This document shows, piece by piece, positions 1 to 44,712 of a DNA stretch of 64,000 nucleotides (within the stretch, counting starts at the first letter, position 1; every line of letters begins with the position of its first letter). The DNA is from Schmidtea polychroa. Taxonomy: Eukaryota. Made by a program: the position numbers and the translations under genes. Location: NCBI GenBank assembly GCA_044892525.1, contig CM097887.1:87708397-87772396 (forward strand). Direction: 5' to 3'. A model generated the notes under the pieces. The model had not been told where the DNA came from and searched no databases. It saw only the letters and a list, made by a program, of their open reading frames with translations.

Positions 1-6
1 ATAAGA

Positions 7-6431: not shown

Positions 6432-6580
6432 CAAGAGGAGGAGTTGTTGTAAATAATGTATAAATGAAACGATAAAAGTAGTAATAATAATAGTAGTATG
6501 TACAAAATAAAAGTAGTAAATTAAAACAATATGTAGAAAATCTCTAAAACAAGTATGATGACCATGTATTGTAAATAGGA

Positions 6581-7036
6581 ATGAACCAGAGAAACGAAGA
6601 ACAGGAACACCCAAATGGGATACCACATGTTGTTGAAGTAAGAGAACAGCCACTAATGAATGTGCATCCAGTGGACATGATAGAAATGAACGTGCCAAAC
6701 CAGCCGAGTCAGCCAACAGGATCCATGTGGAGGGCACAGTGTGAATTAATGACCCAATTGACAAATCAGACTCAAGAGCATTGGGTACGAAATCAAACGG
6801 CGTTGATAGAGAGTATTAATAGAAATGCAATATATATTACAAAAATAGAGGAACAACACCAAATAATCGCGCAACTAGAGTATAATAACAATCAGTTAAT
6901 AAGCCAAATCAGATGGCAAGCGGAAGAAATTAGAAGGTTGCATGAAAATCGACAACATGATGATATTACCAGTTTAGTCGAGTGGATGACCGGGTTACCA
7001 GGAACAGGGGAACCGGACTCGACGGTTGATGTATAG
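6581..7036 (+). CDS. Accessory ORF-a (151 aa, coiled coil), homolog of 27045-27404
   Basis: MWRAQCELMTQL..LIESIN aligns with MWKQQCAMLTQV..LVESLN, in the same position after the polyprotein. Confidence 0.8.
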   Translation: MNQRNEEQEHPNGIPHVVEVREQPLMNVHPVDMIEMNVPNQPSQPTGSMWRAQCELMTQLTNQTQEHWVRNQTALIESINRNAIYITKIEEQHQIIAQLEYNNNQLISQIRWQAEEIRRLHENRQHDDITSLVEWMTGLPGTGEPDSTVDV

Positions 7037-7124
7037 AAGGGAGAGGAGTAAAATGTAAATAATCTTGTAAATAAATAAAGTATAACCAAGCAGAATCCCA
7101 AGATTTAAAAGTTATCATTGTAGA

Positions 7125-8549
7125 ATGCAAAACAAATCAGAAGAAAACCGAAGAGAAGTAGAGGAACAAAAGATTAACTATGAGTTGATGAGAAAATACC
7201 AAGCCAAGCCGGACGAGTTCGAAGAGAGACTATTATGTGCCGATGCAGCCTGTAGAAAACTATTAATTGGAGCAAGCCAAACTCGATGCGGTTGTAGACT
7301 GTGCCGAGGGTGTGATATAAGATTGGCCAAACTAAAGCGAGAAACTTGTCCAGGATGTGGAGAAGCATTTAAGTTGGTTCCCACTGGCACGATACCGGAT
7401 AGAGCAATGAACCGAGAAATCAGAGAAGTGAAAATAAGATGCACCCAAAGGTCATGCGAATGGACAGGTCGAGTAAAGGAGTTGAGAGCCCATACCGACG
7501 TATGCGAATATTTAGAATTAGAATGCGAAGCATGTAAGGTAAAGTTCTTTCGAAAAGAGAAAACCAAACATAAAGGAGAATGCGAAGCACGAACGGAAAA
7601 ATGCGAATTTTGCGGAGAAACCGCTAATTGGAGAGAGATCGAAATGGAACACCGAAACGCAGCAGAAAGACGGATTTGCGACGAATACACAGGGAGATGC
7701 CCAAACGAGTGTGGAGAAATTAACAACGTCAGATTAAATGAACATTGGGAGATATGCACGAGAAAAGCGATAAAATGCCCAATGGTGACATTCGATTGTA
7801 GAGCACAATTACCAGCAGAAGAAATGAAGAAGCATGTGGAGGAGAATACATTCGAGCACATGCAAAAGATGATGAGAGCAATAGAGTTAACAGCAAGGGC
7901 AATCGAAGACGTTAAAGACTAACTCAAATCACATAAAATCATGATAAAAGAAATGCTGAGCTCACAGGAAAGTTTCGAAAATACGAGAGAAGCCGTAATA
8001 CAAAGAATGTTGAAGTTAGACGACAAATTAGTCGAAGTAAATAAACTACAAACCAAATGGATGGCAAAGGAACTGCCAACAGAGGAACTACCAATATTAC
8101 CATACATGTGGAAAGTCCAAGGAATAACAGAAATAATGGAGCAAGCAAAGCAAGGAATCCAGACAACGATAGTGAGCAAACCATTCTACGCCAAGAAACA
8201 TGGATGCAAGATGAAATTAAGATGGTTTCCAAATGGTGATGGAAAGTTTAAAGATCGATGCATGTCCTTTTATATGCAAATCTGTAAAGGAGAGTTTGAC
8301 GACCTAATAGTATGGCCATTCCGACATAAATTAAAAATATCTCTCTTAGGATCAAAAAAGACACATATAATGTGCTGTCGAGCATCAAGTCCAGCATGGA
8401 ATAAACCGATTACAGAGGTTAATCCTGCGGTAGGAGTAGCAGAGTTTATGCAGCTATACCAGTTCAATGACGGTTCCTACATAGAAAAGGACACCATATT
8501 CTTCCTAATTGAACTAGACGAGGTAGGACCAACAATAGAAATACGATAG
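7125..8549 (+). pseudogene. TRAF-like gene (RING, TRAF zinc fingers, coiled coil, MATH) with one in-frame TAA at 7920-7922
   Basis: ORFs 7125-7922 and 7941-8549 share a frame. MATH signature YMWKVQG..SKPFY..GCKMKLRWFPNGDG..WPF. Colinear with the intact 25573-26961. Confidence 0.9.
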
Positions 8550-8705
8550 ACGGATAGAAGGAAACTGTAAATATTTTGTAAAAACAATGTAAAGTAATTA
8601 GATAAAGTAATTATAAAGCTACTGTATAAAGTAAAATAACTCACCAAAACCATAAAAAATTAGAAAAAGGAAAAATACAAAAAGAAATGATGAAATTTAT
8701 TATAG

Positions 8706-9887
8706 ATGAGTAATCAAGAGAAATCGAATATCCGAAAGAAAACGATCACAATGAGAGAAGGAGAGGACGATACGTCATCCGGAGAAAAGGTAGGAAGTTC
8801 GGAAGTCAGCAGAACAAAACCCAGTGGTTTCACGTACTATCGAAGAATTGTGGGAAATGGTTATAGCTTAGTGCAGGGAGATTTGAGGCAGGGGAGTGAT
8901 GAGCAATTCAGATGTGAGAACCAGAGATACCTGTCGTTTAAACACCAGACCGTTTTCACAAAGGAACAGAGCCGAGCACTGGCACTCAACGGATTTTTCT
9001 TCTCCGGAAAACCAGAGATACCCGATCAAGTAACGTGTCGTTTCTGTAAAGGAAAATTAGCAGAATGGAAAAAAGGAGAACACCCAAAGGAGGAACATCG
9101 TAAACGATTTCCAACTTGTCCGTTCGTACTGGGATTTGATGTACACAACAAACCGGAAATCAAATACGAAGCCTTGGAGAAATTGAAAACCGAAGACGAA
9201 AAAGGAGGGAAAATGAGCATCGCGATAACCAGAATCGTTGATGAATATGTTCCAACTTGTGAAGGGGAATTCCTCACGCAAATAGCGGATAATAGAATGA
9301 AAACGTTCGGAGATGATACGAGAGGACCTGAACTAGCGATAAGAGGATTCTATCTAACAGAAAAGCAAATACTCAAGTGTGAGAGATGCGAAAGCCAACA
9401 GAGATTACCGGAAGAAGGCATACCAGAAATTAGACATCAAGCATGGTGCCTATATCACAACGAACAAGAAACCGAATATCCGGAAGTACTAGTAACAGAG
9501 GAAGAGGTTGACGAAGTTGTAGACAAGCCTAACATGTGCAGAGCGTTGAAAGCAGCCGGAATAGGCACGACAAGGGCAAAGAACATGATTAGGGAGAGAC
9601 TACAGAAAAACGTACATATACCAACAACAACGTACGACATGATCAGGGCGATAACCCAGTATAGAGAAAAACCTGAAACAAAAATAAAAGAAGAATCAAT
9701 GGTCAAAACAGCTATCTTACGAGATATCAAATGTACTATGTGTTGGGAGAGGAGTGTAGAAGTTATTCATATGCCATGCGGACATTTGATCGCATGTGCC
9801 ACGTGTAGTAGGAAAATAAAAGAATGTCCAATGTGTAGACAGAGGATTGCGCAGCGAATCAAAGGATTTCGCTACGCCGATCAATAA
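8706..9887 (+). CDS. IAP-like protein: canonical BIR, degenerate second BIR, C-terminal IAP-type RING
   Basis: LALNGFFF..VTCRFC..LAEW..HPKEEHRKRFPTCPFV; second CERC..H..C; CTMCWERSVEVIHMPCGHLIACATCSRKIKECPMCR. Confidence 0.93.
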   Translation: MSNQEKSNIRKKTITMREGEDDTSSGEKVGSSEVSRTKPSGFTYYRRIVGNGYSLVQGDLRQGSDEQFRCENQRYLSFKHQTVFTKEQSRALALNGFFFSGKPEIPDQVTCRFCKGKLAEWKKGEHPKEEHRKRFPTCPFVLGFDVHNKPEIKYEALEKLKTEDEKGGKMSIAITRIVDEYVPTCEGEFLTQIADNRMKTFGDDTRGPELAIRGFYLTEKQILKCERCESQQRLPEEGIPEIRHQAWCLYHNEQETEYPEVLVTEEEVDEVVDKPNMCRALKAAGIGTTRAKNMIRERLQKNVHIPTTTYDMIRAITQYREKPETKIKEESMVKTAILRDIKCTMCWERSVEVIHMPCGHLIACATCSRKIKECPMCRQRIAQRIKGFRYADQ

Positions 9888-9969
9888 CGAAAATTAAAAT
9901 TTCGTGTATAAAGTGTAGATAATAAATGTATGAAATAATAGTAGTAGTAATAGTGTAATTATTTAGACA

Positions 9970-11549
9970 ATGAATAAAGAATCACAAACCTATGTGGAAA
10001 CCGAGATGCAACAACTCGAACAGTACAAATCCATCATACAAACATACGAAGCAGAAAGAGTAAAGAGAGAAATAGAAATGTACAAAACCATGTATGAGAA
10101 AAAGCAACAAGAGTTAGAAGTGGAGAAGGCGGAAGCACTAGCAGCAAAAGAGAAGTGGATGAAACAGGTAGAGGAATTAACCGAAGATGTGAGAAATACA
10201 TCAACATACCAAGAATTGGAGGAGGAGCTCTCGAACTTACGAACTCAGCGGATTATGGAGATAGTTGGGTTATGCGGAGAGATAATAATGCAGAAGACAC
10301 AAATTACGAGGAAGAACAGCGTAAAACGGAACGAATAAAACTGCAAGCGCAACAATGGAAACGAAAATACGAAACCCTCCAAACGAGACAGAATGATAGT
10401 CACGAACATCAAATACGAGGGTATAAAGTAGAACTAGAAGAAGCAAAGAACCAATGTGCAATGATGAAAGAAAAATGGGAAAGATGCAAAAGGACCCTAA
10501 GCGAAGTCAGGGGACAAGGGAGGAGAACACCACGTAAAGAACCAATCGTTAAAGATAACGTATTAGAGCGAATTAACACACAAATAAAGATACAAGCTCA
10601 GAAATGGAAGTATAAATACCTAGGAAGTCAAACCCAAGTGCTCTATTGGAAAATCAGTAGCAAGGAACAACTGCGATTACGAAAAGCAGACCAAGAATTT
10701 TACGAAATAAGGGCTACACAGCGAGAAGAAGAGGAAGTAGAGTGGAGAAAACGACAGCAGAAATTTGAGGAAACCGAAGAGTGTCTCAAGCATCAAGCCC
10801 GAAAATGGAAAAAGAATTGGAAAGAGACCAAAGAGGAGTTAAGACAGTTACCAATGAAACTGATGGAAAGAGACGAATTTAAAATGTGGGAAACGATAGA
10901 AAACCAAAAAGATGAGATCAGCCGATTGAGTAGAGAACATAGAATCAAGACGCGGACCAGCGACGGTAGACGGAGAGTCATAAAGAAACAGACTCGAGAG
11001 ATAAGAAGGTATGAATACCAGGAAAAGAGATGGGAACAACAATTGACAGACCAAGATCGACAAATCCGACAATTACAAACAGAGGTAGAGGAAGCTAATC
11101 AAGAGATGAACGGATATAAAGGTATGTACACCCAAAGGGATGTGAATTGGAAGCATCAGACTGCGCTTAATGCGAAATGTAGAGAGGAGTGCGATAAGGC
11201 AATTCAACAAGCCAAACAGGAAACCGAGATAATAAAACGATGCTTCGAAGAAAATGAAGCGAATCTGAGAGCAGAAATCGAGAAGTTGAAAATGCTTGAA
11301 AAAACCCAACGATTGGAAGAGGAATTGGATGAGATGATAGAAAACGAAAGTAGATTAACGTTTCTGTTGGATGAAGAAATAAACATCTCAACGGAATTGC
11401 GGGAGGAAGTAGAGCGGTTAAGAAGACAACCACCAATACTATTAATGCCACTCTACCCGTTCCCATTACAAGTGCCACAGCCTGCCGAAGTCACAACAGA
11501 TGAAGGCTTCGAAGAAAATAACGAACAAAATAACGCAACATGGATTTAG
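9970..11549 (+). pseudogene. Long coiled-coil accessory gene split by a frameshift (9970-10338 and 10155-11549); homolog of 24315-25352
   Basis: Shared ARKWK..LPMKL / ARNWK..LPMRL and LTFLLDEEIN..DEGF / LTYLLDEELN..DEGY. Confidence 0.8.
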
Positions 11550-11704
11550 TCGGAGAGAGGTTGCCTGTAAATAAGAATGACAAAAAAAAAAAAAAAAAAA
11601 AAAAATCATAAAGCCAAAACCAAATAAAAATTACAAATTACAAAACCAAAAATTCAAAATAAAAGGGAGACGAAAGGAAAAATGATGTGTATATTTTTGT
11701 AGAT

Positions 11705-12418
11705 ATGAATTATTTAAAAGACAGAGAATCAACGAGTAACGCAAGAAAATCAATTGACCAACCCGAACAAAGCCAGAATACGATACCAATCAAACAAGAA
11801 CCGATGAAATATTATAGTAATAAATGGAGAGTCAGCAAGAAGTTGTTCAAAACAAAAATCGCAAATCAAAATGTAGAGATTACGAGATTGAGACAGCATA
11901 TTGTTCAATCAAGACGATTAATAAACACTGTCAAGCAGGAAATTTTGAGGGAAATAAATGAATCGAAACTAAAAGAGACGGAAAATAAAAACCTGAGACA
12001 AGAGATAGTAGAGTTGAGAGCTCAGGCAGTAATCGAAGACTATTGGAAATCAGAAACAAGGAAGTTGAAAAAGATTGTGAATATCGACCAAGTTTATATC
12101 GAACAATTGGAAGCACAATACGCTTATGCAAAAACGAGAATGCGGGAAAGTAAAAAGGTCGACAAGAGAAACGCAAGACTCAAGGAGGAGATCAAGGAAC
12201 AAAGAGAGGAAACAGAAAAACAATGGAAGTTGAAAGAAAATTATCGGAGAATTTTAAATCAAAAACGACGAAGCATGCAAGCACTGCAGACGACAATGAC
12301 CATCAGACAGAGAAAATGGAAAAGTGAAGAGAAGCGATTACAAGAAATACCAGAATTAAAGAGACAGTTGATGGCAACGCAACTCGAAGTAATAAGGATG
12401 AACGAGTTGAGCACCTGA
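11705..12418 (+). CDS. Short coiled-coil accessory ORF, homolog of 23439-24140
   Basis: VIEDYWKSETRK vs VISDYWKTEARK; IPELKRQL vs LPELRKRV. Start placed at the ATG following TTTTTGTAG. Confidence 0.8.
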   Translation: MNYLKDRESTSNARKSIDQPEQSQNTIPIKQEPMKYYSNKWRVSKKLFKTKIANQNVEITRLRQHIVQSRRLINTVKQEILREINESKLKETENKNLRQEIVELRAQAVIEDYWKSETRKLKKIVNIDQVYIEQLEAQYAYAKTRMRESKKVDKRNARLKEEIKEQREETEKQWKLKENYRRILNQKRRSMQALQTTMTIRQRKWKSEEKRLQEIPELKRQLMATQLEVIRMNELST

Positions 12419-12537
12419 ACCTCCCGTAAAATTAAGGGATGAGGTCGGTGGCTCCCAATAAATGAGATAAAATAACGGTGTAAATAAATTGTAAATAAAG
12501 CCAAGTAATTATTATTGACGTATATGTATATGTAAAG

Positions 12538-13524
12538 ATGAGAAGCCTAACCGTGGTGATAATTATAATGACAATGCCCAGAATCCTGCAAGCTGAAGAA
12601 TCAATGATCAGATGCCAGAAAGAATACCCATATCGCAGAGAAGATAGCACCTGTAGTAGCTTTAAATCAATCTGTGAAAAACCCAATGAAGAATGCGAAC
12701 AAATCAAGTTGCAATGTTCGCAATGTCCACAAACAACTGGAAGTTCGACGGAAATGCAAATGGCTCAGACAATGAAAACAATATTAGAACAAGAAATGAA
12801 AGTTATCAGAACCCAGATAGCAACATTAGCCAAACAATTCCAAAGCCAGAAATCAAAGAAAGAAACCCAAACGGATCCGGCCGCAATGAGAATGATGGTA
12901 ATAATATTAGAGGAAATAAAACAACAGGTAACAGCAACCGCCAATGGACGTTCAAGCAATTGCGAAATAGTAGTAAAATCTTTAGAGGAAATGAAAGGAA
13001 AAATAACTTCCATCATCAAAGAGGAACCCAGCATTAAAAATGAGGTAACGAAAACCTTGAAAGAAATGACAAAAGAAGTCCTAACTACCATAAACAAAAA
13101 CCCAATGAACTCCGAGAAGATGATTAAAACCCTGGAGGAAATAAAGAAAGTTGTCACCTCGGAAGAAAACAAATTCAACAAACCCGAAAAATCAGAAATT
13201 ACAGATACAACCCAATTGGGAGAAATGATAAACAAACCCAGAGTAGTAGAACTAAGAGAATCTGAACCCCTCACAATATTGATCCTATTAACGGCAAGCC
13301 TAATGATAAACATTACCGTACTGAGCCTGATTGCACTCAAACCCAATTCCAGTAAAGCAAGAAACAAAACCCTCAAACTAAAAGAACAATCAAAGAGTAT
13401 TCGTATCCCAATGGAAGAACAGCTAATCCAAACAACGAACCAACCAAGATACTTCAAATCTTCCCCAAACATCGAAACCAGAGCCGTCATCGAGACGAGA
13501 TCCCGAACAACAGAATTCTATTAG
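12538..13524 (+). CDS. Predicted type I membrane protein (signal peptide, Cys-rich N-terminus, coiled coil, TM); positional counterpart of 22712-23383
   Basis: Hydrophobic N-terminus MRSLTVVIIIMTM and TM-like LTILILLTASLMINITVLSLIAL; last ORF before the LTR in both elements. Confidence 0.75.
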   Translation: MRSLTVVIIIMTMPRILQAEESMIRCQKEYPYRREDSTCSSFKSICEKPNEECEQIKLQCSQCPQTTGSSTEMQMAQTMKTILEQEMKVIRTQIATLAKQFQSQKSKKETQTDPAAMRMMVIILEEIKQQVTATANGRSSNCEIVVKSLEEMKGKITSIIKEEPSIKNEVTKTLKEMTKEVLTTINKNPMNSEKMIKTLEEIKKVVTSEENKFNKPEKSEITDTTQLGEMINKPRVVELRESEPLTILILLTASLMINITVLSLIALKPNSSKARNKTLKLKEQSKSIRIPMEEQLIQTTNQPRYFKSSPNIETRAVIETRSRTTEFY

Positions 13525-13843
13525 TGTGACATCATGACAGTAAAAACATTTCACGACATTATAAACGATAAATCATCCTGATCGAACAATTGATTTCAAA
13601 GACTGAGACTACGATTAATGACACTGATTCTTGAGCATGATAATTTTATTTTTATGTGGACCGACCTCGGTCGTTCTTTTTCTTCATCTTTCAACCCATC
13701 TGTAAAATGTAGTGTAATAGTAGCATTTTTATGTATGTGGGTATTGAGGTCACGACCCTGTAGCTCGTGGACCCAATTTGCATGTAGGCACTTGTAATAT
13801 AGTGCAAGTATTCTGAAAATTAATCTTATTCATCTTTGGATTT

Positions 13844-13862
13844 AAATTGCGGGTCGCAATTT
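13844..13862 (+). other. Pre-LTR hairpin AAATTGCG-ggt-CGCAATTT
   Basis: Perfect 8-bp stem about 22 nt before the LTR; counterpart at 22547-22563. Confidence 0.75.
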
Positions 13863-13883
13863 TATGGGCCCCCGAGTGTTTTA

Positions 13884-16511
13884 TGTTGGGCTAGAACTGA
13901 TTTCTAGACCCAAACTACTAATTGTGACTGAAACGTGCAGGTACACAACATGTAAAAAGCAAAAAGTATAGTTAAATATTAAAACCTACACCAAATAAAC
14001 AATATTAACTAAAGGAGAAAGCAACAAAAACATAAACAAAGAAATTAAATAAAATTATACAGAAGCAAGAAGTGATGCAAAAATCTAACTCAAAAATAAC
14101 CAAACAAACATAGAATTACCAAAAGCAAACTCGAATAACTTAAAAGACGATAAAAATAGTAAAACATTCCAGAAAAACCCAGAACATTCTATAAAATGGC
14201 GATGACCATCACAAAAGTCATCTAGAACAACAAAAGTTAAGGAAAATAAATAAATTAGTATTAAAAATAAAAAATCTCAAAAAGAAATTCATAAAAACAT
14301 CAGTTAAAATAAAAATTAAATTAAAAGTAAAATAGAATGTTCTGGAACCGTTCCAAATCCATCATGGACGTAAATTAATGAAAAAATAATTAAAAAATAA
14401 AAATTTAAAAATAAAAACAAAAATTATAGCACTAAAATTTCCACAAAAAATATAAAAATCATGAAATAGAAAATTCTGGAATAAAAAGAATTCGAGTTTG
14501 TTTTAATGCATCAATACATACACGTGTACAAAATAGGTATATATACTGACACGTTTCAGTCACAAGAATCACTTTTTATGCCAAATTCTTTTTTGCGAAA
14601 ACCTGAAGATAGTGAGTATTTGTTATTGGAATTTTGATGTATAATGATATTATTTATTTTTTTTTTTAACTTAACTTTGATCGTTATTGTTAATATTAAT
14701 TATGCTTAGATCAAACCATGCTTATCATTTTTATCTCATGTAAGAAGGATCGGCGGCGTATTGATACATATGCGTCTCTGATCAGTCCTACATTCGATCA
14801 ATTTGTAAAATCTATAGCACATGCAGACACGCAATATACCTTATATATTTTTTTTTGTTTGGTCATCGGAGGTCGGCCACTTCATGGTTCTACCATGGAG
14901 TTGTGTCGATAAAACCCCTCCGCTATGGCTCCATATACTTTATTTATCGGTCGACAGTGATGTTTCGACTCAACACAACAGTAGGGCTTGTCGTAGCGGT
15001 CACAGTGGGGCCGTGTAAGCAAGCATTCTTCCCGACTATGAATGCATTACACAATTAAAATCACCACTAAAAATTCTATACACTAAATTACACTAGAATT
15101 CTAATCGAGTAGATCTCAGACCCAAATTGAACACAGCAATTACAATTCGGTTAATGTAGTCGGTTAAGACCTCTCCACTTACACGTTTGTCGAACCTCAT
15201 TGAGAAATAATTTTTCGTATCAGTGTAAATGTCTTTCTCGAAATTAACCGTAATAATGCTCACAAAGAAGTTCGACAAGCGTGAATCGTAAAATGAACTA
15301 TATACTCTCCTGTTACACTTAAATATCAGTCTATAAATATATGATATTCCTAAACTATAGAATTTATGTTAGAATCGCTAAATACTTAGAATTCCTAAAT
15401 GGTAAACTATAACTTACTACTGTACTTAGAATTATATTTGATAAATATGTAATACCTCTAAATTATCAATATAAGTTTATATCGTATAATTGATGAATGT
15501 GTAAAATCCTAATTTATAACATTTTACTTCATATTGTTTTTAAAAAAATATAATTCATAAATATGTACTATCTCTAAAATTATAAAATAATTTGATATTG
15601 TAATTTGTAAATATGTAATACTCCTACAGAATAGAAAATAATTTTATATCAAACTTAAAAATATAATGTATAACTATGTAATACTCCTAAAGTATAAAAA
15701 GTAATTTGATATCGCACTTAAAAATATAATTTATAAATATTAAATGACGAAATCTAACTTTATATTGTTCTCGAAAACATAACTTGTAAGTATTTCATAA
15801 TAAAACTGAACTTTAGGTCTTATTGAATGTATAATATATAAAGATATAATAATCCCAAAGGGTAAATATACCGTTATATTATACCTAAAGCGTAAGCTAT
15901 GAGCATTGAATTATAATATATACCTTTGTATTAGCCTTAAAAATGCAATGTATTATTACGTAATGATAAAAAATATCCTTATTTACAATCCATAAACGTT
16001 AAAGTACAAGATGCATCTCCAAGTGCATAATGTGTGAATGTATAATAGTTCTGAATTATGAGCTAGAATTTTATAATCCACTTAAATACACACATATCTA
16101 AACCAGAAACTAAAATTTTATATAAAGAATATAACTTATAAATGTCGGAGTTATAAATTATAATTCCATAATACCTCAATGTATCATTTATAAAAACCTA
16201 GATTATAAGTAGAATTATGCCCTTTCATTTAAATATATAATTTATTATAAACTATACTTTGATTAAATGTGTAAGTTATAAATACCTGAAGTGTAACTTT
16301 AATAGATTATGGAATCTAGTTTAAAATATAAGGTAAATCATTTATATATTTAGTTATTTGAATTAGAAATTAGGATTTTCATATAACCATATGCTTGGAT
16401 AGCAATGAGAAAGAGGCTATAAAAGGAGTTAAGTAGAACAGATCCTCCTAACGGTAGTCGTTAACTGACAGCCACCCGCTCATGTCACATTACCAACGTT
16501 ACTCCCCAACA
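13884..16511 (+). repeat. 3' LTR of element A (start well supported, end tentative)
   Basis: Starts TGTTGGGCTA like the B LTR, A-rich first 600 bp, TATAAAAG at 16418-16425, CCAACA ending at 16511. Confidence 0.6.
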
Positions 16512-17451: not shown

Positions 17452-17949
17452 CTTTAAAAGAAAAACTAAAAATTATGCAAAGAATTACCAGTTGCCTGTT
17501 TCTACAACCCTGCTGTAATGACTTGCATCACCTTTAAAAGATCCGGGGGAACAATTCATTTAAATTCTCATAAAACGGCCATGATTTTCGCTAATTAAAC
17601 AACGATTACTGTGATAAAACAAAAGGCCTTAAGTCAGGGTGACGATAATAATTGTAAATGATTAAATTTGGATAAAAGTTATTTAATTTTAAGTAGTTAA
17701 AAATTAAATTGGTAAAACCTATACACCAACTTTAAATTTTCTTTCATTAAAGTTATTTAATTTTAAGTAGTTAAAAATTAAATTGGGAAAACCTATAAAC
17801 AAAACTTTTTTTTTTTTCTTTAATAAAAGTAGTTATAACAATCGTAATAAACTTAGTCATTGATATGTGAGTTAATTCGATGTATTTTATTATGACGACC
17901 ATTAATAATTGCCGCGAGTTAAACGGGTATTAACGTTTACATTCCAGGC

Positions 17950-18288
17950 ATGGCACCACCAAACGATAACCTCAGCAGCGAAGAGGACGAACAATGGATA
18001 ATCACCCGCCTTCGCACGCGGTACATCTGGCACCATATTCATCGATGGTGTCAGGGGCGGGACCTGGACTGTTCCAATCGGATTATCCGGACCGGCCCAG
18101 AGCCCGATGCCCAGGCATGGGTGAAGGTAGAACCGGACAATGACTTGTTGCAGGAGGCCCGCGATCGGGCATCGATCGAGTTGGAAGCGGCCCAGATGCG
18201 GCTGAGGAGGATAGAACTCCAGATCAGAGCCGAAGCAGAAGGGAAAACCCTAGAGGAGCTGGAGGGGGTGGTTGCCCCTCCACGAAAA
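17950..18288 (+). pseudogene. 5' part (113 codons) of a small AT-hook ORF interrupted by element B
   Basis: The ORF track protein runs into the LTR after VAPPRK; removing B and one AAAA restores PPRKRGRPRKNPV*. Confidence 0.85.
18285..18288. other. Left copy of the 4-bp target-site duplication AAAA (right copy 48950-48953)
   Basis: Directly abuts TGTTGG at 18289 and CCAACA at 48949. Confidence 0.85.
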
Positions 18289-21200
18289 TGTTGGCGTATG
18301 TGGAGAAGAAAAAAAAATTATACATGCCTTTCCATCACACCTATCAAGCATCATGGCTCCGTTATACATTTTCTACACATACTCCAAATGATTGATTGCA
18401 TATTCCCACATATGAGCCCATGGTGATGTTCCATGTTGGTGCTGCTCACACGGGTCGGAAAAGGTTAGCAGGTGAGCCCCTGCCTTAGGACTACTCCTAA
18501 CCCTTTCTCAGTTCGGGTCCCACGGTGCCTTAGAAGGACTTACCCATATACATGCGTGTCACTCGGTCTGATCCTGGTCCAAAGGAACAACCTTCAACCT
18601 TAATTATCTTCATTCCGCAGCATTATCTCATCTACTCTAATTGCACAAACAAATATATGAAAGCTCGACAAAACTAAAATCAAACAGAAAATTTTATTGG
18701 CACTGAAACGATAAAAATATCATTACTACTAACAGATCAACAACAGTCAAAAAGATATAACATTAGCAACATTCACGAGATAATTTACAACTCAATGAAG
18801 AGGAAATCAAGCTCAATTTTACATCACATTAAACAAAGTTATCCCCATCGGCCAGTATCTCATCTATGTCGACCGGTAATCGGCTATCTACAATGTGTTT
18901 GATGCCCTCAGCTGGAACAATGCGGAAGACTTCCTTTGAGGGGATTGAATGGGAGGACGTTATCTCTTGGATTTTTGATTTCGCCGCCGATAAGGACGTC
19001 TCGAGTGCTGTCATCGCATCTCGGCGTTTTTGGTTCTTCTCGGCTCGAGTTGGCCGTTTCCGTTTGCGGGTAGTCGGGGGTTTTTCGGTGTTCGTGGTAC
19101 CGATTGGTGCTACCAAGATGGGAGCTACGATGGGATCAGTAGGTCCACCTATCTTTGGCTGGTGACATGACAACACCGGGGGTGGAATGGGCGGCAGTTG
19201 TGAGCCGTGCCCCTGGCAGTGCGAGCCGGAAGATGTAGGAGACGGGTGGTGACGAGGAAAAACATTCGTCCCATCCAGAACGGGGAATTCTCGCACCCGC
19301 TTAGCCAATTCTGCCTCCGTATATACCTTATGGAGGGCTTCTGACTGTGCTTTGATGGTGAGCCGCTGACAACGGCTTTCCTCTAGCAGGCTGTCCCTGC
19401 AATGCTCTAATCGGAGAATTTTCTTGCGTTCCTCTTTCATTTGTGGCGGGGAGAACCACGTTCCTTCATAGAGATCAATTCTCTTTTTGAGAGCCCCGAT
19501 ATATAAGTGGAGTTGGGCGATATCCGCGTTCTTGTCCGCACAAGAAAAACACGGGCGAAGTTCTTTGGCGTTGTTGGACGATGTAGCCATCTAGAAAATC
19601 AATCATTGTTTATATTTACTCGAAGAAACCTCTATCAGTGTGAAGAAAAATCAAATTTTTGGGCATGGTTTTGGAGTTTGATCAAACATACCACCCAACG
19701 ATGACCCACACACTTCTTCATCCATCTCTATACGCAGTCATTCAGTTGCAAACATTCAAATCTCTTCACCTGATTCGTGTAATTTAAGAAAAGGAAACGG
19801 GGATTCGTATACCAAAAATTCTTTCTACACAAACCTCGCCCTTTGAGTTTAATTTCGGATGGGCCATTCCCAGGTAAAACCCGTCTTTTACTTTATCCCC
19901 TTCAACCTTGTTCCCATTAGTATATTTTAATTAAGAATTTTTGCCGATATCATTATGGCAATTCGTCGAGGTAGGCCTGCCTAACATTACAGAGAAATAA
20001 TTCACGGCGACGGAATAGATTATTTATGTTTTTATCTCGTTCAAAATTATGGAATTGATTGTGTAATCAGTTGAAAATTCAGCTCTAATCTACATCTAAT
20101 TAATTCCAATAACGCGTCGAAAATCGTCGTCATGGAAAACGTTTACTTGTGATTATGCATTATGATTGACGGTGTAGGTGTGTCATTACTCCTGGTGGTA
20201 TCTGTAACTGTATGTTGGCTATCTCCGCGAATGATGGTTTATGCTGTTATAATAAATTATTGTATATCGAGTTGTGTAGGGGAAATCCATCCCCTTACTT
20301 CATCCTATTATCTCGCTATTCTAGAGAAATTTATACCATCATGCCGCTATTACATCACCAAAATCGTTGATTTCCTTTTACACTGCCCTATGCATATTTG
20401 ACTGTGGTGCGTGTGTATGTGCATGCTCAAGTCGGAATATTAGCGGTTGCGTAATAGATTCCTCAAATAAGCAGCCGTAGATGAATCGAAAAATCAGATT
20501 AATCAATCTGAGTGGGCGACAACTTCATAGATTATTGGGTAAGCTCAACAATATCATCTAATTTCCTTTTACGATATTAATTCAGATCAATGACTATCAG
20601 CTTATTCATTTGACATTTTCCCAGAAAAGTTAACATGTTATCTCCTTCTCCAGGACGTTATCAGATATCTCCTGTCGACTAACTCTACGCAGGCCAATGC
20701 AAATCAACTGATTTCGTTATCGTTGACAACTACTGTCTGCGGGCTCGAAGTAAGAATTTTGATAATTTCACTACAAGATGGTTACTTCCCTGTCAGCGAG
20801 AGATTCTTTATCACTGGCATTGGTGACTCAAGGACGACAATCAAATCGTAAGAGTACATCGACAATGGATGTAGCCGCTAACATCATGACGGCACAAATC
20901 AGACAGAACCTTGCAAACGCAGAGCGTCACCGAAAAATCGTTGGATTTACTTGCAATCTATGGTCGACACCGTTCTTTCCTAACTACGTCGATTGACCGG
21001 CTGAATATCACGAAAAGAATTTTCCTCCTATCTATGTGGATTATCATCGAATCTGTACGAACGTCACTGCCTATCTCGCTCTGAATTGTCTGCATTCGGA
21101 ATTCAAATCATCTCTACATCTACTGGAAATCTCGATTTAACTAAATGAACCGATGGTACGCTCTACAGACGATCGCGCTTGATGAAGGAACGGTCATTTA

Positions 21201-22525
21201 TTAACTGGATGTTCCACCTACTGAGTTTCTTCACCCCTCACGACACACCCAAGAAGGCATTCATTGCTGCCACCTCCTTGCACCGTCATGAGGGACCAAT
21301 CAACTCTTTTCCATTCAATCAAATCAACAATATAATAATCAAACTGAATGATAGAAAATGCATAAATAAAATTTACCCGGCGACCATATCATTTGGATCT
21401 CCGAGTATGATGTTGCTCCTCCTACATGATCGAAACCTCATCGTCTCCTTGGTGGATCTCTAATATGACAAATATCACTCTCTACAAATATCACATTCCC
21501 TTTTCAGCATGTTCGTGATTTCTTATGCATACCAACCTTTCCACGGTGGTGTCCTCTACTGCAGTGCAATTCCAACTCGTCCACATCATACTGGGAGCTC
21601 TCAGATGGTACAGTCGTCGGTACCATGAAGAAAGGCAACTTTTCATTTAAATAAATTTATTATAAGAAATTGTTTTATTATATTTATTATGATTAACTAA
21701 ATTAAACTAATAACCATAAATAAAACAACTGTCGAGGCATACCTTGAGTTTCGAAAACTGAAGTTAAATCGGTTGAATTTAAAATTTTTCCCGAATGGAT
21801 TTGTAGTTTGGCCTCTATATATTTCTTCCTCGGTTTGGTTTGGTAATCTCTGAACTAGTTCGCTGTAGGATAATTAAAGGTTCCGAAATCTGTCAAGTCT
21901 GTAGAAAAAATTTTTTAAAAGTGGTAGTATATAACGAACCGAAGTTTACCTGTAGAAAAAATTTTTTAAAAGTGGTAATCTACAGATATTTTCCGTTCCT
22001 TATATATTATTTTTCGTCCAATCAGGACACGACTTGTTTGTATTTTTACTATTTATTATTATTTTTATGTTTTTTATTATAATATATTAGATTTTAATGA
22101 CTTAACTTATTTCCTATTATTATTTTATTTATTTTCTTATTTTTATTATTTTCCTCCTATTTTTCCTGTGGATTTATTGCTACTTTATTGTAATATAATT
22201 TTTTGTTTTAATTAGACTTAAAGATAGTTTTATTTTTTATTTATTTCTTAAATTTCTCTTTTATTTGTTGTCACTTTTTTACTTATTTTATTCTATTTCA
22301 TCTGCTGGGTCCTAAATCGCTTTATTTCTAAATCTCAAGGGGTTTATTGGGTTTTATTTAGTTTGTTTTACTTATTCTTATTCTCTTATTGATATTTTAT
22401 TGTTCCTTTTTGATTTATTAGCGAGAATTTGATGGTACTTTATATTTTTATTTTATTTCGTTTATTTTTCAAGGATTACCTTTCTATTCGCTCCAGTTTT
22501 CGAAACTCCACGTTTTAGCCCAACA
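18289..22525 (-). repeat. 3' LTR of element B
   Basis: Direct repeat of 44713-48949; TGTTGG...CCAACA termini; flanks diverge immediately before 18289/44713 and 2 nt after 22525/48949. Confidence 0.97.
18829..19590 (-). CDS. LTR-encoded sense ORF (253 aa): coiled coil, Pro-rich region, basic NLS-like RKRKRPTR
   Basis: Identical translation in both LTRs; a diverged homolog at 49268-49742 supports real coding. Confidence 0.75.
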   Translation of the reverse strand: MATSSNNAKELRPCFSCADKNADIAQLHLYIGALKKRIDLYEGTWFSPPQMKEERKKILRLEHCRDSLLEESRCQRLTIKAQSEALHKVYTEAELAKRVREFPVLDGTNVFPRHHPSPTSSGSHCQGHGSQLPPIPPPVLSCHQPKIGGPTDPIVAPILVAPIGTTNTEKPPTTRKRKRPTRAEKNQKRRDAMTALETSLSAAKSKIQEITSSHSIPSKEVFRIVPAEGIKHIVDSRLPVDIDEILADGDNFV

Positions 22526-22546
22526 AATCACTCCGGGGCCCGTTAA

Positions 22547-22563
22547 AATTGCGCCCCGCAATT
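22547..22563 (-). other. Pre-LTR hairpin AATTGCG-ggg-CGCAATT of element B
   Basis: 7-bp stem about 21 nt before the 3' LTR; conserved with element A. Confidence 0.75.
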
Positions 22564-22711
22564 CACATAATATCATACGTTTAACTCATACCTTTTTTCG
22601 GCATAACAACTAATTTCACGGTCAACATTCACACAAACATAAAATTAAAATAACTAAATAATACTTTAATTAAACAGATAAAAGGACAAATATAAGCAAG
22701 CAGTGGCCACT

Positions 22712-23383
22712 TTAGGTGACCGGATTTATACACACAAAGTTTATGAATGGTCGATGTCCCATGATCTCAAGGTTCGGAATGTCTTGGTTGGTTGAATTCT
22801 GGGTCGGATGGCTGGTTGAAGTTGTTATCGTGGGGAGCTGGATTGTAACAGGCATTTGGTCAGGAGATAGATTTTGTTGCATTTGGTCGGGTGGGTTTGG
22901 TTGTTGAAAATGTACTGCTCGTTTATGTTTATTTTTCGATCGTGGGTTCTTTCTTTCGTGTTTCTCGGATAGTGACTGGTTTCTTCTCCATGTTCGATGA
23001 ATATCATACGCTTTCCAGATGACTAGTGCGCAGATGATAAGGGTTTCACTGATGGTAGTATAGAGTAAGACTTGGCTTTCTTTTACTTCCTTCTTCATGA
23101 TGATTTCCTTCAAGGGTTGTTGGGTGGTTTGTTCTTGTAAGAGAATTTCGAGTTGTTCGATTTTTTGGGTTTGTAGGTGGAGTTGCATTTGAAGTTTTTG
23201 CCAGACGGCTTTGTTCCAGCATTGTTTCGGGATGTTGTTGGAGAGCTTTCTTTCGCTTTTCAGTTTGGTTAACGGGTTTTGCTGTTTCTCGGGATTCTCC
23301 CAGAATGTTGGGATTGGCTGCCACATGGGTATTCCGTTTATCGCTATCATCATTATTGTCACCAGGGTTGCTCCGAACCACAT
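22712..23383 (-). CDS. Predicted type I membrane accessory protein (223 aa)
   Basis: Signal-like MWFGATLVTIMMIAING, coiled coil, TM VLLYTTISETLIICALVIW, basic tail. Confidence 0.75.
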   Translation of the reverse strand: MWFGATLVTIMMIAINGIPMWQPIPTFWENPEKQQNPLTKLKSERKLSNNIPKQCWNKAVWQKLQMQLHLQTQKIEQLEILLQEQTTQQPLKEIIMKKEVKESQVLLYTTISETLIICALVIWKAYDIHRTWRRNQSLSEKHERKNPRSKNKHKRAVHFQQPNPPDQMQQNLSPDQMPVTIQLPTITTSTSHPTQNSTNQDIPNLEIMGHRPFINFVCINPVT

Positions 23384-23438
23384 ACTACTATACGAAAATT
23401 TTTATTTACAATTATTTACATTGATCATTCATCTTTAA

Positions 23439-24140
23439 TTATTGCCGGGTTTTCTTTTTACGGGTTTTCTCGGATGTTCTCATCACTCTCGTTTCTGCTT
23501 TTATTACTCGTTTTCTCAATTCGGGTAGTACTTTTAATTGTTTGTCTCTTTCGTCTAACTGTTGCCTTAGGGTTATTATTTTTTCTTTTAGTGCTTTTAT
23601 TTCTTGTGTTGCTCTTTCGAGGTTTTTATGGTTCATTATCTGTAGAAAATCATTTTCCCTTTCCCCGTCTTCTTCGTTGTCTATTTCCTGGTATTTGTTG
23701 TTCATTCGTCTCATTATCTCACATTCTTTCTGTTTTTGGTGTAGTTGGAGTTGTAACTCTTTCAGGCTTTCTTGGTGTTTCCGTGCCTCGGTTTTCCAAT
23801 AGTCACTAATCACTTCGTCGGCCTTTCGACTGGCCCTCTCCTGCCATAATTCTTCCGCGATCTTTTCCCAATTTCTCCCTCGCTTTCTTTGCTCGTGAAG
23901 CCATTCGTTTTCTTCCTCTACTTCTTTCTTTACTCCTTCTAACAAGATATATTCTCTTTTCAATACTTTAATCATTTTTCGATTATCTCTCCACCTTTCA
24001 ACTAATCTTTCGTTTTCCTGTCTCTCTTCTTGTAATTCTTCCTTGATAGTTTTCTTCCTCTCCACTTCATCAACTTCAATTTCTCCCTCTTCTAACTCGA
24101 TTATAGATGTTATGCTGGGTTGTCCGTTTTCAGTGTTCAT
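23439..24140 (-). CDS. Short coiled-coil accessory ORF (233 aa)
   Basis: Homologous to 11705-12418. Confidence 0.8.
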   Translation of the reverse strand: MNTENGQPSITSIIELEEGEIEVDEVERKKTIKEELQEERQENERLVERWRDNRKMIKVLKREYILLEGVKKEVEEENEWLHEQRKRGRNWEKIAEELWQERASRKADEVISDYWKTEARKHQESLKELQLQLHQKQKECEIMRRMNNKYQEIDNEEDGERENDFLQIMNHKNLERATQEIKALKEKIITLRQQLDERDKQLKVLPELRKRVIKAETRVMRTSEKTRKKKTRQ

Positions 24141-24314
24141 TTTCTATAATATATACATAATTAATAATTGCGCTACAGTGCGGCTTATACTTATACATTT
24201 ATATGTTATTTTATAATCAGGGTTACAGTCCCTTTCATACTTTTACTGTACCATTAATTTTTTTGGTTGGGATACAGGTCCCGATTTTTATATTTTTTAT
24301 CTTTCCTTTTATCT

Positions 24315-25352
24315 TTATACAAAGGTCTCTTCCTGGCCTACATATCCCTCATCGCTTTCTACTGACGTTTGTAATTGGAGTGCGATGGGATCAAATGGGA
24401 TGTAGTACCGGGGAATCTGCGCTCTAAGTTCTTGCACTTCGTCTCTTAGTGCTCTTGACACGTTAAGTTCCTCGTCCAACAGGTATGTTAGATACCTGGT
24501 TTCATCGTCTCTTACCTCTATCTGTTTTTCTAGCTCTTCCGCTTTTTCGCCGTTTTCCCATTTCTTGATCTCTATCTCCAGATTTTTAAGATTTTCGTTA
24601 TACATTTTCCTTTCGTTTTCTAACTTTTTGTTTTTCCCCGCCAGTACCATATTTCTCTGCTCCAGAGCTCCTTGGTATCCGTTGACATCTCGTTCTAGTT
24701 CTGCGACCTTATTCACCAGTTCCACGAGTCGTCCTGACTGTTGAAGTATCAGTTCTTCCATTGCGGCATTCTCGTGCTCCCTTATGGAGATTTTCATGGC
24801 TAGATGTCTTTCAAATTCCATGGCTTTGGTCTGCCATGTTTGGCTTCGGGCCGCAATCTTTCTGAGCCGTTTCAGTTCTTCTCTTATGACCAGATTTTCC
24901 TCCCATTTGCCTTGTTCGCTTTCGTATTCTAATCTCATAGGCAATTCTTTCATTTCTTTTTTCATCTCTTTGTTCTGCCGCTTCCAGTTTCGGGCTTCTG
25001 CCAATAGGTGATTCATTTTCCTTCCTTCCTTTTGTTTTTCTGCTTCTCGTTTTGTGTTTTCGTCCGTCAATCGTTTCCGTGCTTCCTGCACTAACTGTTT
25101 TAAATAGTGGCTGTGCGCTTCTTGGCGAGTGTTTTCCAATGATGCCCACTTAGAGGCTCTTTTGCATGCTTCTGCTTCGGCTCTTAAATTGTTTACTAAC
25201 CACTGATATTTGTTATTCTCGTATTCCCTGGCCTCTTCGAGATGGTTGTGGGTCTGGTTCGTCAATTGTAACATTACTTTGACCCATTTTCCCTTATGGA
25301 TTTTATTGACTTTGGTTTCGTGGTTTGGGGCTTCAGTTCCTTCTTGTGTCAT
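24315..25352 (-). CDS. Long coiled-coil accessory ORF (345 aa)
   Basis: Homologous to the C-terminal part of 9970-11549. Confidence 0.8.
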   Translation of the reverse strand: MTQEGTEAPNHETKVNKIHKGKWVKVMLQLTNQTHNHLEEAREYENNKYQWLVNNLRAEAEACKRASKWASLENTRQEAHSHYLKQLVQEARKRLTDENTKREAEKQKEGRKMNHLLAEARNWKRQNKEMKKEMKELPMRLEYESEQGKWEENLVIREELKRLRKIAARSQTWQTKAMEFERHLAMKISIREHENAAMEELILQQSGRLVELVNKVAELERDVNGYQGALEQRNMVLAGKNKKLENERKMYNENLKNLEIEIKKWENGEKAEELEKQIEVRDDETRYLTYLLDEELNVSRALRDEVQELRAQIPRYYIPFDPIALQLQTSVESDEGYVGQEETFV

Positions 25353-25572
25353 CTTTGTCTAAATAACGATATCATTAACTTAACGTTGTACGCTTATATC
25401 TGGTTTATTATTTATTTATTTTTATAATTCGTTATAGGAGTTGTTTTAGGAGTTTTTCGCTTAAGTTTACCTTTGGTAGATTTGGGGGGAATTTTTCTAC
25501 ACTACTATATAATATTTTACTGGATATATACGCCGATATTTACAATTAGTATATACAAAATTATTCGTCTCT

Positions 25573-26961
25573 CTACTCAGTCCTACTCTTCCCGTCTCGC
25601 CTCACCGCTATTTTCATGTATATAGTGTCGTTTCTCGTCATGTCTTCTACTTTCCGCTGTAGGATGAAATTTGGTGCTCCAGTTGCTGGTCCTTCTTCTT
25701 CCAAGGGCCTTTGGTAACATACGAGGTTTCCCGCTGTATGGAAACTCTGTTCGTGTATACTTTGATAGTTCATCATTGCGAGGTCTATTTTTGCTTTGAA
25801 TGGCCATTCTATTAACTCGTCGTATGGCCCTTTGCACATCAAGAAGAATACTGAGAAATGCGTTCCGTATGCACTTCCATCCCCATTGGGGTATGCTTTC
25901 ATTTTCATTTTATACCCGTTTTTCCATGAGTAGAATGCTGGACTTAGTAATGTTGTATCCTTTCCATTTCTCGCTCTCTGCATCTTCTCTTTTACTCCCG
26001 TTATTTTCCATATGTACGGAGCCGTAGGTATTAATTCGTTGAGGTTTAATTCGCTTACTTTTTGATGTAGTTCTTTCACCATAATGTTGCTAGTTTCTAC
26101 TAGATCTGTCTGTATCTTTGTACTTGTTCTCGCCTCTTCAAATGCTTCCTTTTCTTCCAATAGTTCTTTTACCAACGCTTTTAGCGAGACTATTTCTCTT
26201 TCTAAGTTTTCGGTTTTCCTTTCGTTTTCCTGTAATACCGTTGACCATATTTCCGCGTGTGTTGATACGTTTTCTGCTAGATGTTGGGGTAATTCCCCTC
26301 GGTGTAATTGTTTCGGACATCCCCATTTTCCTAGCACACACGTTATCTTTTTTCTTTCACACTCTTTTAGATGTTGAGCGAGTTTTATTACTCCGGGTTT
26401 ATCGCATTTGTTGGGGCATTCTCCTCTGAATTCTGCGCACACTTTCTCCTCTTGTATGTTGTGATGTTGACTGATTAGTTTCTTCCAGGTGTCGTTTTCT
26501 CCGCAATACTCGCATTTCTCTAGTCTTTCTTCGCATCGTCTTTGATGTTCTGCTTCTTCATTGACTTTAATCTCTTCTTGGCAACGTTTGCATTGACTGA
26601 TTTTATACTCACATTGCTCCATATGTTGCCTCACTTCCCATATCACTCCTCGCCAATTACATGGGGTGTTTTTACATCCTAGGTTTGCATTCAACATATC
26701 TTTTACAGCTGCTTTATCTTCGTTTGTATCTCCCAAACTTGTTATCATTGTTTCTTTGCATACTGGGCACCATTGTGGTCCCTTCTTTATTATCTCCTCT
26801 ACACATTCTCTGCACATTCTGCATCCACATCTGGTTTGGTGAGGTTCTCTTAATAAGCTCTTGCATATTCCACACGTTACATGGTTGTGTATTCGAATTG
26901 TGGTGGACTTTCTGATTTGTTCAACAATTTCTCTGAATTCTTCTCGTTGTCGCTTATCCAT
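25573..26961 (-). CDS. Full-length TRAF-like protein (RING, zinc fingers, coiled coil, MATH; 462 aa)
   Basis: CGICKSLLREPHQTRCGCRMCREC..CPVC; HMEQCEY..C.RC; YIWKITG..SPAFYSWKNGYKMKMKAYPNGDG..THFSVFF..WPF. Confidence 0.95.
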   Translation of the reverse strand: MDKRQREEFREIVEQIRKSTTIRIHNHVTCGICKSLLREPHQTRCGCRMCRECVEEIIKKGPQWCPVCKETMITSLGDTNEDKAAVKDMLNANLGCKNTPCNWRGVIWEVRQHMEQCEYKISQCKRCQEEIKVNEEAEHQRRCEERLEKCEYCGENDTWKKLISQHHNIQEEKVCAEFRGECPNKCDKPGVIKLAQHLKECERKKITCVLGKWGCPKQLHRGELPQHLAENVSTHAEIWSTVLQENERKTENLEREIVSLKALVKELLEEKEAFEEARTSTKIQTDLVETSNIMVKELHQKVSELNLNELIPTAPYIWKITGVKEKMQRARNGKDTTLLSPAFYSWKNGYKMKMKAYPNGDGSAYGTHFSVFFLMCKGPYDELIEWPFKAKIDLAMMNYQSIHEQSFHTAGNLVCYQRPLEEEGPATGAPNFILQRKVEDMTRNDTIYMKIAVRRDGKSRTE

Positions 26962-27044
26962 TTCTATAATTATACATATATTCGTTACTGGTACAGTTTC
27001 GTATTTTTATTTACATTTATTTACATTGCTATTTTAGGTTATAT

Positions 27045-27404
27045 TTATTGGCTGGAAGAGTCGGCCTCTTGTCCGCCCTCTTCCCTGTTGGTTAACCATT
27101 CTGACCAGTCTTCTATCTCCTCTCGCTCCATCTCTTCCGCGATTCTTATTAGCTCCTCTTCTTGCACCTGGCTGTATCGTGATATTCGGTCTATCTCTCG
27201 CTGCATTTGTTCTATTTTCATTCGTTGGTCTTCGATTATTCTTACATAATTGAAGCCTTTATTTAAACTTTCGACTAAGCTTCTTTGTACAGCGAGTCCT
27301 TGTTCCTGTAAATTCGAAATCACTTGAGTTAACATTGCACATTGTTGTTTCCACATCTCCTCGGTTGTTGTACTGTGGTTTACTTCCTCGCCTATTCGCT
27401 CCAT
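27045..27404 (-). CDS. Accessory ORF-a of element B (ATG at 27404; the ORF track starts at an upstream TTG)
   Basis: Homologous to 6581-7036. Confidence 0.75.
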   Translation of the reverse strand: MERIGEEVNHSTTTEEMWKQQCAMLTQVISNLQEQGLAVQRSLVESLNKGFNYVRIIEDQRMKIEQMQREIDRISRYSQVQEEELIRIAEEMEREEIEDWSEWLTNREEGGQEADSSSQ

Positions 27405-27572
27405 TCTTAATTTATATATACTTTTCAATCCTTATCTAATTTTATTTTCATATTAATTATCCCCATCATTATATACTATTGATACCGCGCTTATATAAAA
27501 ATATAGAATACTGTTATATAAATAAATATTTCCTACTTACTTTTTACAATCTATATACAGTCATAATCCTTT

Positions 27573-44687: not shown

Positions 44688-44705
44688 ATCCCGGCTGAGC
44701 CCCCA
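44688..44705 (-). promoter_or_regulatory. Primer-binding site, tRNA-Pro-like, 7 nt from the LTR end
   Basis: TGGGGGCTCAGCCGGGAT, 16/18 to the classical Pro PBS TGGGGGCTCGTCCGGGAT. Confidence 0.8.
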
Positions 44706-44712
44706 AAAATCA

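Follow-up and report, generated by a model that had tools for sequence, protein, structure and literature searches.

The window analysed here, a 64,000-nucleotide stretch of the Schmidtea polychroa genome (contig CM097887.1, positions 87,708,397 to 87,772,396), contains two nested giant gypsy elements, A and B, which make up its positions 1-50118 and carry many separate open reading frames (ORFs), the expression of which is the subject of this report. Element B is bounded by identical 4.2-kb long terminal repeats (LTRs; 48949-44713 and 22525-18289), and its insertion into the 3′ LTR of element A is marked by a 4-nt AAAA duplication. The 5′ LTR of element A lies upstream of the window, in locus L032. 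The elements and their main coding parts are as follows.

1..50118, forward strand: element A, 3′ part, comprising the pol-ankyrin end, the accessory cassette and the 3′ LTR (from 13884 to near 50118), split by element B
18289..48949, reverse strand: element B, a Burro-type gypsy LTR retrotransposon of 30,661 bp, nested in the 3′ LTR of element A
27573..41453, reverse strand: polyprotein of element B, a single ORF of 4626 aa
6432..13524, forward strand: A cassette, with ORF1 (6581), TRAF (7125), BIR-RING IAP (8706), two coiled-coil-like ORFs (9970 and 11705) and the last ORF (12538)
22712..27572, reverse strand: B cassette, with ORF1 (27404), TRAF (26961), two coiled-coil-like ORFs (25352 and 24140) and the last ORF (23383), an acceptor preceding each

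Both elements are Burro-type giant gypsy LTR retrotransposons, matched to Burro by layout and cargo. The planarian Burro / GYPSM1 giant gypsy-like elements are described, in excerpts of PMC6431247, as about 30 kb long, with one polyprotein, env between gag and pol, ankyrin repeats, TRAF-MATH and BIR cargo, and accessory ORFs. In the single polyprotein of element B, the Pfam order is gag, env (a mononegavirus-like fusion protein), PR, RT, RH, IN and ankyrin repeats, with env placed between gag and pol. Such elements are abundant, as shown by 1058 genome matches to the primer-binding site (PBS) motif and 1167 to the polypurine tract (PPT) motif; the B TRAF gene has at least 92 genome matches at 91-100% identity. 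The A and B cassettes are collinear, the IAP being present in A only and the last ORF carrying hydrophobic stretches, and five A-B cassette alignments gave 24-33% protein identity. The A cassette is damaged: its TRAF gene has a premature stop at 7920-7922, and the coiled-coil-like ORF at 9970 has a frame break. A PF24664-guided retrieval of 20 stretches recovered the cassette in the expected direction in L095, L108, L109 and L112.

A preliminary description of this DNA had proposed that every accessory ORF starts just after an AG resembling a splice acceptor. All 14 AG-ATG contexts that it named are present where it placed them, whereas the ATG ORFs at 7941 and 10272 have no such AG; these two are fragments of genes (TRAF and the first coiled-coil gene) that are disrupted in this A copy and intact in copy L095. 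Two of the 14 belong elsewhere than had been supposed. The ORF at 44253, assigned to the element B set, does have the AG, but it is a RING ORF outside the 3′ cassette, and the AT-hook ORF at 17950, again with its AG, is element A's own LTR ORF, truncated by the insertion of B. These and the related LTR ORF of element B are located as follows.

43774..44253, reverse strand: RING ORF, between the PBS and gag, acceptor TTTAG|AT ATG
17950..18288, forward strand: LTR ORF1 of element A, acceptor TTCCAG|GC ATG, interrupted by B
45253..46014, reverse strand: LTR ORF of element B, homologous to the second LTR ORF of A (ltr2), with its own ATG after TTTTCTAG; second copy at 19590-18829

The C-terminal RGRP of A LTR ORF1, read in the intact 5′ LTR, is AT-hook-like. 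The spacers, described earlier as short and AT-rich, measured 55-220 nt and are A-rich, and the chance rate of AG near ATG is as substantial as had been cautioned, an AG lying at most 6 nt before 424 of the 889 sense ATGs in both elements. Even so, in comparison with dinucleotide-shuffled spacers, the AG was in excess: it occurred 0-6 nt before the ATG in all 11 cassette spacers against 4.4 expected (P = 3e-5). Under two criteria chosen post hoc, AG at 0-3 nt was found in 11/11 spacers against 2.8 expected, and TAG at 0-6 nt in 9/11 against 1.6 expected, the latter having a background of 74/889 sense ATGs of both elements and 3/32 ATGs within spacers. The 9 nt preceding the acceptors are rich in T (52/99 against 25.7 expected), at twice the content of the rest of the spacers. 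At 15 homologous starts from other subfamilies, which are kin by descent and therefore not fully independent, YAG lay 0-6 nt ahead of the ATG in 13 and no more than 10 nt ahead in all 15, compared with 177/889 sense ATGs for the 0-6 nt range; the first figure drops to 12/15 when, for the last ORF of B′, the first ATG is used instead of the second. The AG is conserved at four B acceptors in 30/30 copies, which are near-identical and hence give low power, and at the IAP in 29/29 readable of 30 loci. In host TRAF genes, the putative last-exon acceptors look similar by eye, unscored.

The observation is confirmed, and in their sequence context these AGs behave as 3′ splice sites would. Chance in A-rich DNA combined with common descent might be invoked in view of the high background and the collinear, orthologous cassettes. 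However, the low protein identity between the cassettes, the enrichment of TAG and of the T-tract, and the out-of-sample result make this explanation very improbable.

Acceptor-like sites also precede genes outside the cassette, as listed below.

41454..41977, reverse strand: gag acceptor TTTTCATTGTAG, ending at 41962, then 508 nt without ATG
49300..49742, forward strand: LTR ORF2 of element A (ltr2), acceptor CCCTTTTAG|TG at 49308/49309, the conserved frame beginning at the TG

For gag, a T-rich TAG lies 508 nt (B), 503 nt (A) and 499 nt (A′) before the ATG, and no ATG occurs between this site and gag in any of the three elements, whereas the kilobase upstream holds 16-30. A non-autonomous family retains the site, followed by 463 nt without ATG. 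These results indicate that the acceptor pattern is not confined to the cassette. The gag frame of element B is open for 169 codons from the acceptor (41961-41454, reverse strand), with no ATG and a single TG dinucleotide in the 508 nt. This open frame may extend gag at its N terminus, with translation beginning further upstream or at a codon other than ATG; in A and A′ the opening is only 103 codons.

The ltr2 gene is homologous to the B LTR ORF but has no conserved ATG. Its start at a pyrimidine tract and YAG|TG was seen in 10/10 loci from 7 subfamilies, 8 of which have no in-frame upstream ATG. Since the conserved frame begins at AG|TG, it would require an upstream exon whose last base is the first base of a codon; if that base were A, an ATG would result. 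A leader ending in A was predicted from ltr2 beforehand and was then found in 6/7 A-type representatives. Protein searches returned no leader-extended ltr2 protein, exact look-ups of 10 proteins in the collection gave 0/10 matches, and the one distant ltr2 protein match, P0001, reads through the unspliced acceptor. Splicing of LTR ORF1 to ltr2 was considered and rejected, ORF1 having its own stop and no shared phase-1 donor.

The candidate promoter, leader and donor lie within the LTRs.

48423..48430, reverse strand: TATA box in the 5′ LTR of B, predicted promoter; copy at 22006 in the 3′ LTR
48323..48373, reverse strand: predicted leader intron of B, 51 nt, CAG|GTAAAC ... CTACAG, with a direct repeat on both sides
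48063..48166, reverse strand: predicted major donor of B (AAG|GTATGC at 48166) and 104-nt GT-AG segment, which is absent from the L114/L115 LTRs
14538..14617, forward strand: A-type leader in the 3′ LTR of A, with TATA at 14538, TCAGT near 14556, exon end A at 14611 and predicted donor GTGAGT at 14612

In A-type LTRs, a TATA near nt 650 and a TCAGT initiator-like site are followed by a GT(A/G)AG donor at nt 728-745, which marks the end of a conserved 5′ block and is followed by T-rich sequence. The first donor after the TATA lies at +55 to +57 in 7/7 B-type representatives, which have a second donor between +226 and +278, and at +74 to +109 in 11/11 A/C/D-type representatives, so that it falls within these narrow ranges in 18/18 subfamily representatives against a background of 0.16 per 40 nt; loci L192 and L193 were excluded as not being LTR starts. 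The conserved donor lies 410-830 nt into the LTR, and its G is retained in 216/216 A′ matches and 65/68 B matches, the three exceptions representing one event.

The first donor of B and of B′ marks the start of a predicted intron of 50-51 nt, and the flanking direct repeat differs in sequence between the two. Leader introns of 50-51 nt with subfamily-specific direct repeats occur at 48373-48323 (reverse strand) and in the LTRs of L108/L168 and L173, the last of which has two such donors 50 nt apart. These predicted introns look like products of intron birth by tandem duplication. A TTATGCC-like motif also recurs in leaders (window positions ~14573-14583; L169, L182 and L190) of autonomous and non-autonomous A/C/D families.

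A small promoter for each ORF, or reinitiation on unspliced RNA, would make the AGs a by-product. TATA-like strings do occur in some spacers, but TATAAA is not enriched (9 against 8.6), and 32 ATGs lie within the 11 spacers, upstream of the acceptors. This explanation also leaves the T-rich AGs, the conserved donor, the AG|TG start and the ATG-free gag leader unaccounted for, and is improbable.

The preliminary description had inferred either spliced-leader (SL) trans-splicing or alternative splicing from one leader. The one-leader option is strengthened by the conserved LTR donor, by the GT-AG segment missing at that donor and by the ltr2 start that needs a leader. The SL option, in its hybrid form, holds that an LTR leader serves the 5′ ORFs, and that the cassette is cut by polyadenylation in each spacer and by host SL trans-splicing. 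According to excerpts of PMC12582326, S. mediterranea carries out SL trans-splicing, flatworms widely use the same acceptors for cis and trans splicing, and fragments of SLs are present in their LTR and LINE copies; the same-strand spacers here, at 55-220 nt, fall within the 300-bp flatworm operon criterion of the same source, and no 20-kb introns would be required. The continuity of AATAAA with the motif described below (TGTAAATAAA) also speaks for it. However, flatworm SLs end in ATG (PMC12582326, same excerpts), and therefore an SL would open the wrong ltr2 frame (10/10 loci) and cannot start this gene. The acceptor-ATG offsets were in frame with the SL ATG in 6/14 cases, close to the 4.7 expected by chance, whereas 143/187 Echinococcus SL clusters are in frame according to excerpts of PMC3510090 (binomial P = 0.007, for a comparison with another species and between non-independent sites). 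The offsets also drift between orthologues (2 in B TRAF, 1 in B′ TRAF). Being at chance and drifting, they favour a leader that does not supply the start codon, without being decisive. AATAAA alone is not enriched in the spacers (16 against 12.6 in shuffles), which are A-rich rather than T-rich, and no SL-joined IAP copy was found in the genome. These sequence comparisons favour cis-splicing over SL trans-splicing, and leave the SL operon rather unlikely.

A second signal in the spacers is tied to the stop codons, as listed below.

6448, 7054, 8566, 9905, 11566 and 12479, forward strand: motif copies in the A cassette
27559, 27025, 25557 and 23420, reverse strand: motif copies in the B cassette

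The motif TGTA[ACT]ATA (TGTAHATA) occurs in 16 copies in 10/11 spacers (shuffle mean 1.3, maximum 5), with 16 copies in sense and 1 in antisense orientation, and is found once in 19.5 kb of polyprotein ORFs. Its first copy lies 14-20 nt past the stop in 9/11 spacers, counting one variant (TGTATAAA), and in 10/11 if the second coiled-coil ORF of A is extended to the stop that full-length copies have; in B′, the distance is 14-23 nt in 4/5, whereas the distance from the motif to the next AG is widely variable. The motif is absent within 60 nt downstream of 3 last ORFs, 8 LTR ORFs and 4 RING ORFs. In host TRAF loci, it was seen in 1/30, many of these loci being close paralogues. The non-autonomous family D, in which gag is fused to the C-terminal part of the polyprotein, retains both the acceptor and the motif after the stop of its sole ORF.

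On the sense strand of the predicted 3′ untranslated region, the motif matches the Pumilio element consensus UGUANAUA given in excerpts of PMC6357968. Its linkage to the stop codon suggests a protein that would bind the translated mRNA. Two other candidates were rejected: a forkhead-type DNA site is argued against by the strand bias and the tie to the stop, and a CFIm/UGUA site is disfavoured, because planarian poly(A) sites are reported to lack an upstream UGUA, with CFIm59/68 undetected, in excerpts of PMC5068929.

The motif also bears on a further alternative, namely cis-splicing from the leader together with polyadenylation in every spacer, in which TGTAAATA(AA) would be part of the 3′-end signal; such alternative last exons are known from the adenovirus major late unit. 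AATAAA is present in 9/11 spacers and often fused to the motif, the form TGTAAATAAA occurring 6 times against 0.1 expected; the motif after the sole ORF of family D, and the AATAAA or ATTAAA with T-rich flanks downstream of the LTR ORFs, agree with this alternative. Splicing coupled to early termination has a precedent in the Ty1/copia element EVD (excerpts of PMC5580714). Conversely, the planarian sites just cited are reported without UGUA, the motif is tied to a stop codon that nuclear 3′-end factors do not read, and neither AATAAA nor ATTAAA occurs within 150 nt after the stops of A TRAF, B TRAF and the first coiled-coil ORF of B. Polyadenylation in every spacer, which shares its 5′ mechanism with cis-splicing from a single leader, differs from it at the 3′ ends and thus overlaps with it in likelihood, is a tentative possibility. 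Unlikely is a scheme with two RNA-processing systems on one transcript, in which an LTR leader, also providing the A of a split start codon, would serve the 5′ genes and the host SL a six-gene anti-apoptotic 3′ operon, with a Pumilio-type site after each stop linking it to a stem-cell RNA regulator.

Traces that splicing might have left in DNA were sought in the genome. Three B loci, namely both LTRs of one element (L114/L115) and a probable duplicate contig, have lost a 104-nt segment that runs from GTATGC at the predicted donor to GAAAAG, the mini-intron being retained. The donor had been fixed before the search that found this loss. Such a GT-AG loss is the trace expected of reverse-transcribed spliced RNA, and is possibly a splicing fossil. 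The B leader end followed by a non-G base gave these 3 matches, compared with 65 followed by G.

Taken together, these results suggest, with a probability of about 0.6, that both elements produce all their ORFs through alternative cis-splicing from a single LTR promoter. The LTR carries the TATA box, the short leader and the conserved 5′ donor; in each RNA this leader, of one exon in A-type and two exons in B-type elements, would be spliced to a single acceptor, which would place every ORF first on a capped mRNA of its own. The start codon of ltr2 would be created by the joint A|UG itself, and RNA escaping these splices would serve as the genome. Less securely, A-rich cassette spacers that have no strong poly(A) sites might yield a nested set of mRNAs with long 3′ tails, and a PUF-type protein just past each stop might control the stability or translation of the cassette mRNAs.

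Several points weigh against this scheme. Use of acceptors more than 20 kb away, past many others, would be mechanistically demanding. The AATAAA and T-rich flanks after the LTR ORFs suggest separate 3′ ends for some ORFs. The donor pattern is broad and rests on hand-set TATA positions and representatives that are kin; the leader of the L103 family could not be located; and the seventh A-type leader ends in G at the called site, an alternative A|GTAGGT lying four bases earlier. The A/C/D leaders contain a conserved ATG in weak context and of varying phase, which would be out of frame before some ORFs. The 104-nt loss may not be a splice, because its ends share a 3-nt AAG microhomology and microhomology deletions are common in these elements. 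Genome-wide, the leader end followed by a non-G base had no matches for A (with no denominator) and none for A′, compared with 216 followed by G; a joint to an acceptor starting with G would escape both searches. The IAP start with a non-T base at -3 had 4 matches (two CAG, one GAG and one cut by an AT repeat), none joined to the leader or the SL. No leader-to-cassette junction was thus found as DNA in these searches. None of 8 large internal deletions fell on splice sites (0/8); of eight shortened elements retrieved, all except B4 yielded such a deletion, in each case at a microhomology or with filler and never with GT-AG ends.

Further features of these elements and their surroundings were observed. 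In L112 (L112:20-4135), a microhomology deletion joins the env region in frame to TRAF; a splice product was considered for this fusion and ruled out. The deletion shows a route by which accessory ORFs can enter the polyprotein. In the A′ subfamily, MATH was found within a 4791-codon frame. The PBS motif (44704-44688, reverse strand), which we take to resemble the 3′ end of tRNA-Pro, is common to A, A′, B and L098, its 1058 genome matches being exact. Abundant 11-13-kb non-autonomous relatives extend from PBS to PPT and have one gag-like ORF each (L197-L198 and L199-L200). Upstream of A, in L031-L032, lie an incomplete A LTR and a duplicated unit of 7.6 kb that contains two further ORFs besides a third LTR ORF. 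An 80-nt tandem repeat (5.5 copies) and a 34-nt repeat occupy 42672-43189, between the RING ORF and gag. Outside both elements lie an intronless FkbM-type methyltransferase ORF with an N-terminal hydrophobic stretch (55194-54226, reverse strand), a 120-nt near-perfect palindrome (53089-53208) and, close to the palindrome, two further LTR-end-like sequences (CCCAACA and TGTTGGG; 52803-52934). A large cluster of host TRAF-MATH paralogues, some intronless, was seen in L034-L063, mostly on contig C2.

The Burro family is already known, and the element found here shares its size of about 30 kb, multi-kb LTRs, polyprotein order and TRAF-MATH/BIR cargo, whereas the stop-linked TGTAHATA motif is new. 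The available passages of PMC6431247 do not contain "trans-splic" and are silent on how the accessory ORFs are expressed. In the literature searched, no description of a Burro splicing or expression scheme was found, nor an explanation of how as many as ten separate ORFs are expressed from one LTR element. Burro RNA is reported to increase after knock-down of the piRNA pathway (excerpts of PMC8532177). The Burro1 IAP (B-IAP) is reported to protect planarian stem cells (Lee et al. 2026, as cited in excerpts of PMC13465017), and that study may already show an IAP transcript. If the scheme proposed here is true, such host-useful cargo could be tuned separately from the genes for transposition. 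The predicted splice sites define exact junctions for existing RNA data, with the LTR exon ending at 48167 (B) or 14611 (A) and the B acceptor sides at 27405, 26963, 25358, 24143 and 41961.

For the stop-linked motif, the nearest precedent is the Rous sarcoma virus stability element bound by PTBP1 (excerpts of PMC4764554), likewise a protein site beside a stop with a long 3′ tail after it; here, instead, almost all internal stops are followed by a copy of one short motif. PUF proteins are mostly known to act as repressors. A PUF site just past each stop would, if true, be a new way of handling nested mRNAs. The SL2-type operons of C. elegans and the flatworm operons (PMC12582326, excerpts) have, as here, short same-strand spacers and an acceptor just before the next ATG, but the element differs from them by its own leader and donor and by offsets that do not favour the SL ATG. 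EVD (PMC5580714, excerpts) is likewise an LTR retrotransposon that uses splicing for a subgenomic mRNA, the gag RNA, but it has one splice and one subgenomic RNA, whereas the element here has many accessory acceptors.

The element resembles the complex retroviruses and adenovirus in the single predicted LTR promoter, the donor in 18/18 representatives, the acceptor before each accessory ORF, the LTR-encoded ORFs and the predicted two-exon B-type leader. The adenovirus major late unit, HIV-1, foamy viruses and walleye dermal sarcoma virus (WDSV) each combine one promoter and a short 5′ leader bearing a major donor with many acceptors ahead of ORFs. No Rev-like export factor was identified here. 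The element also differs in being of the Ty3/gypsy type, in that gag-pol itself appears to need an acceptor, and in having 9-10 predicted acceptors over more than 20 kb, with a start codon that would be made at the joint. If true, this would mean that a gypsy element reached the splicing complexity of complex retroviruses independently.

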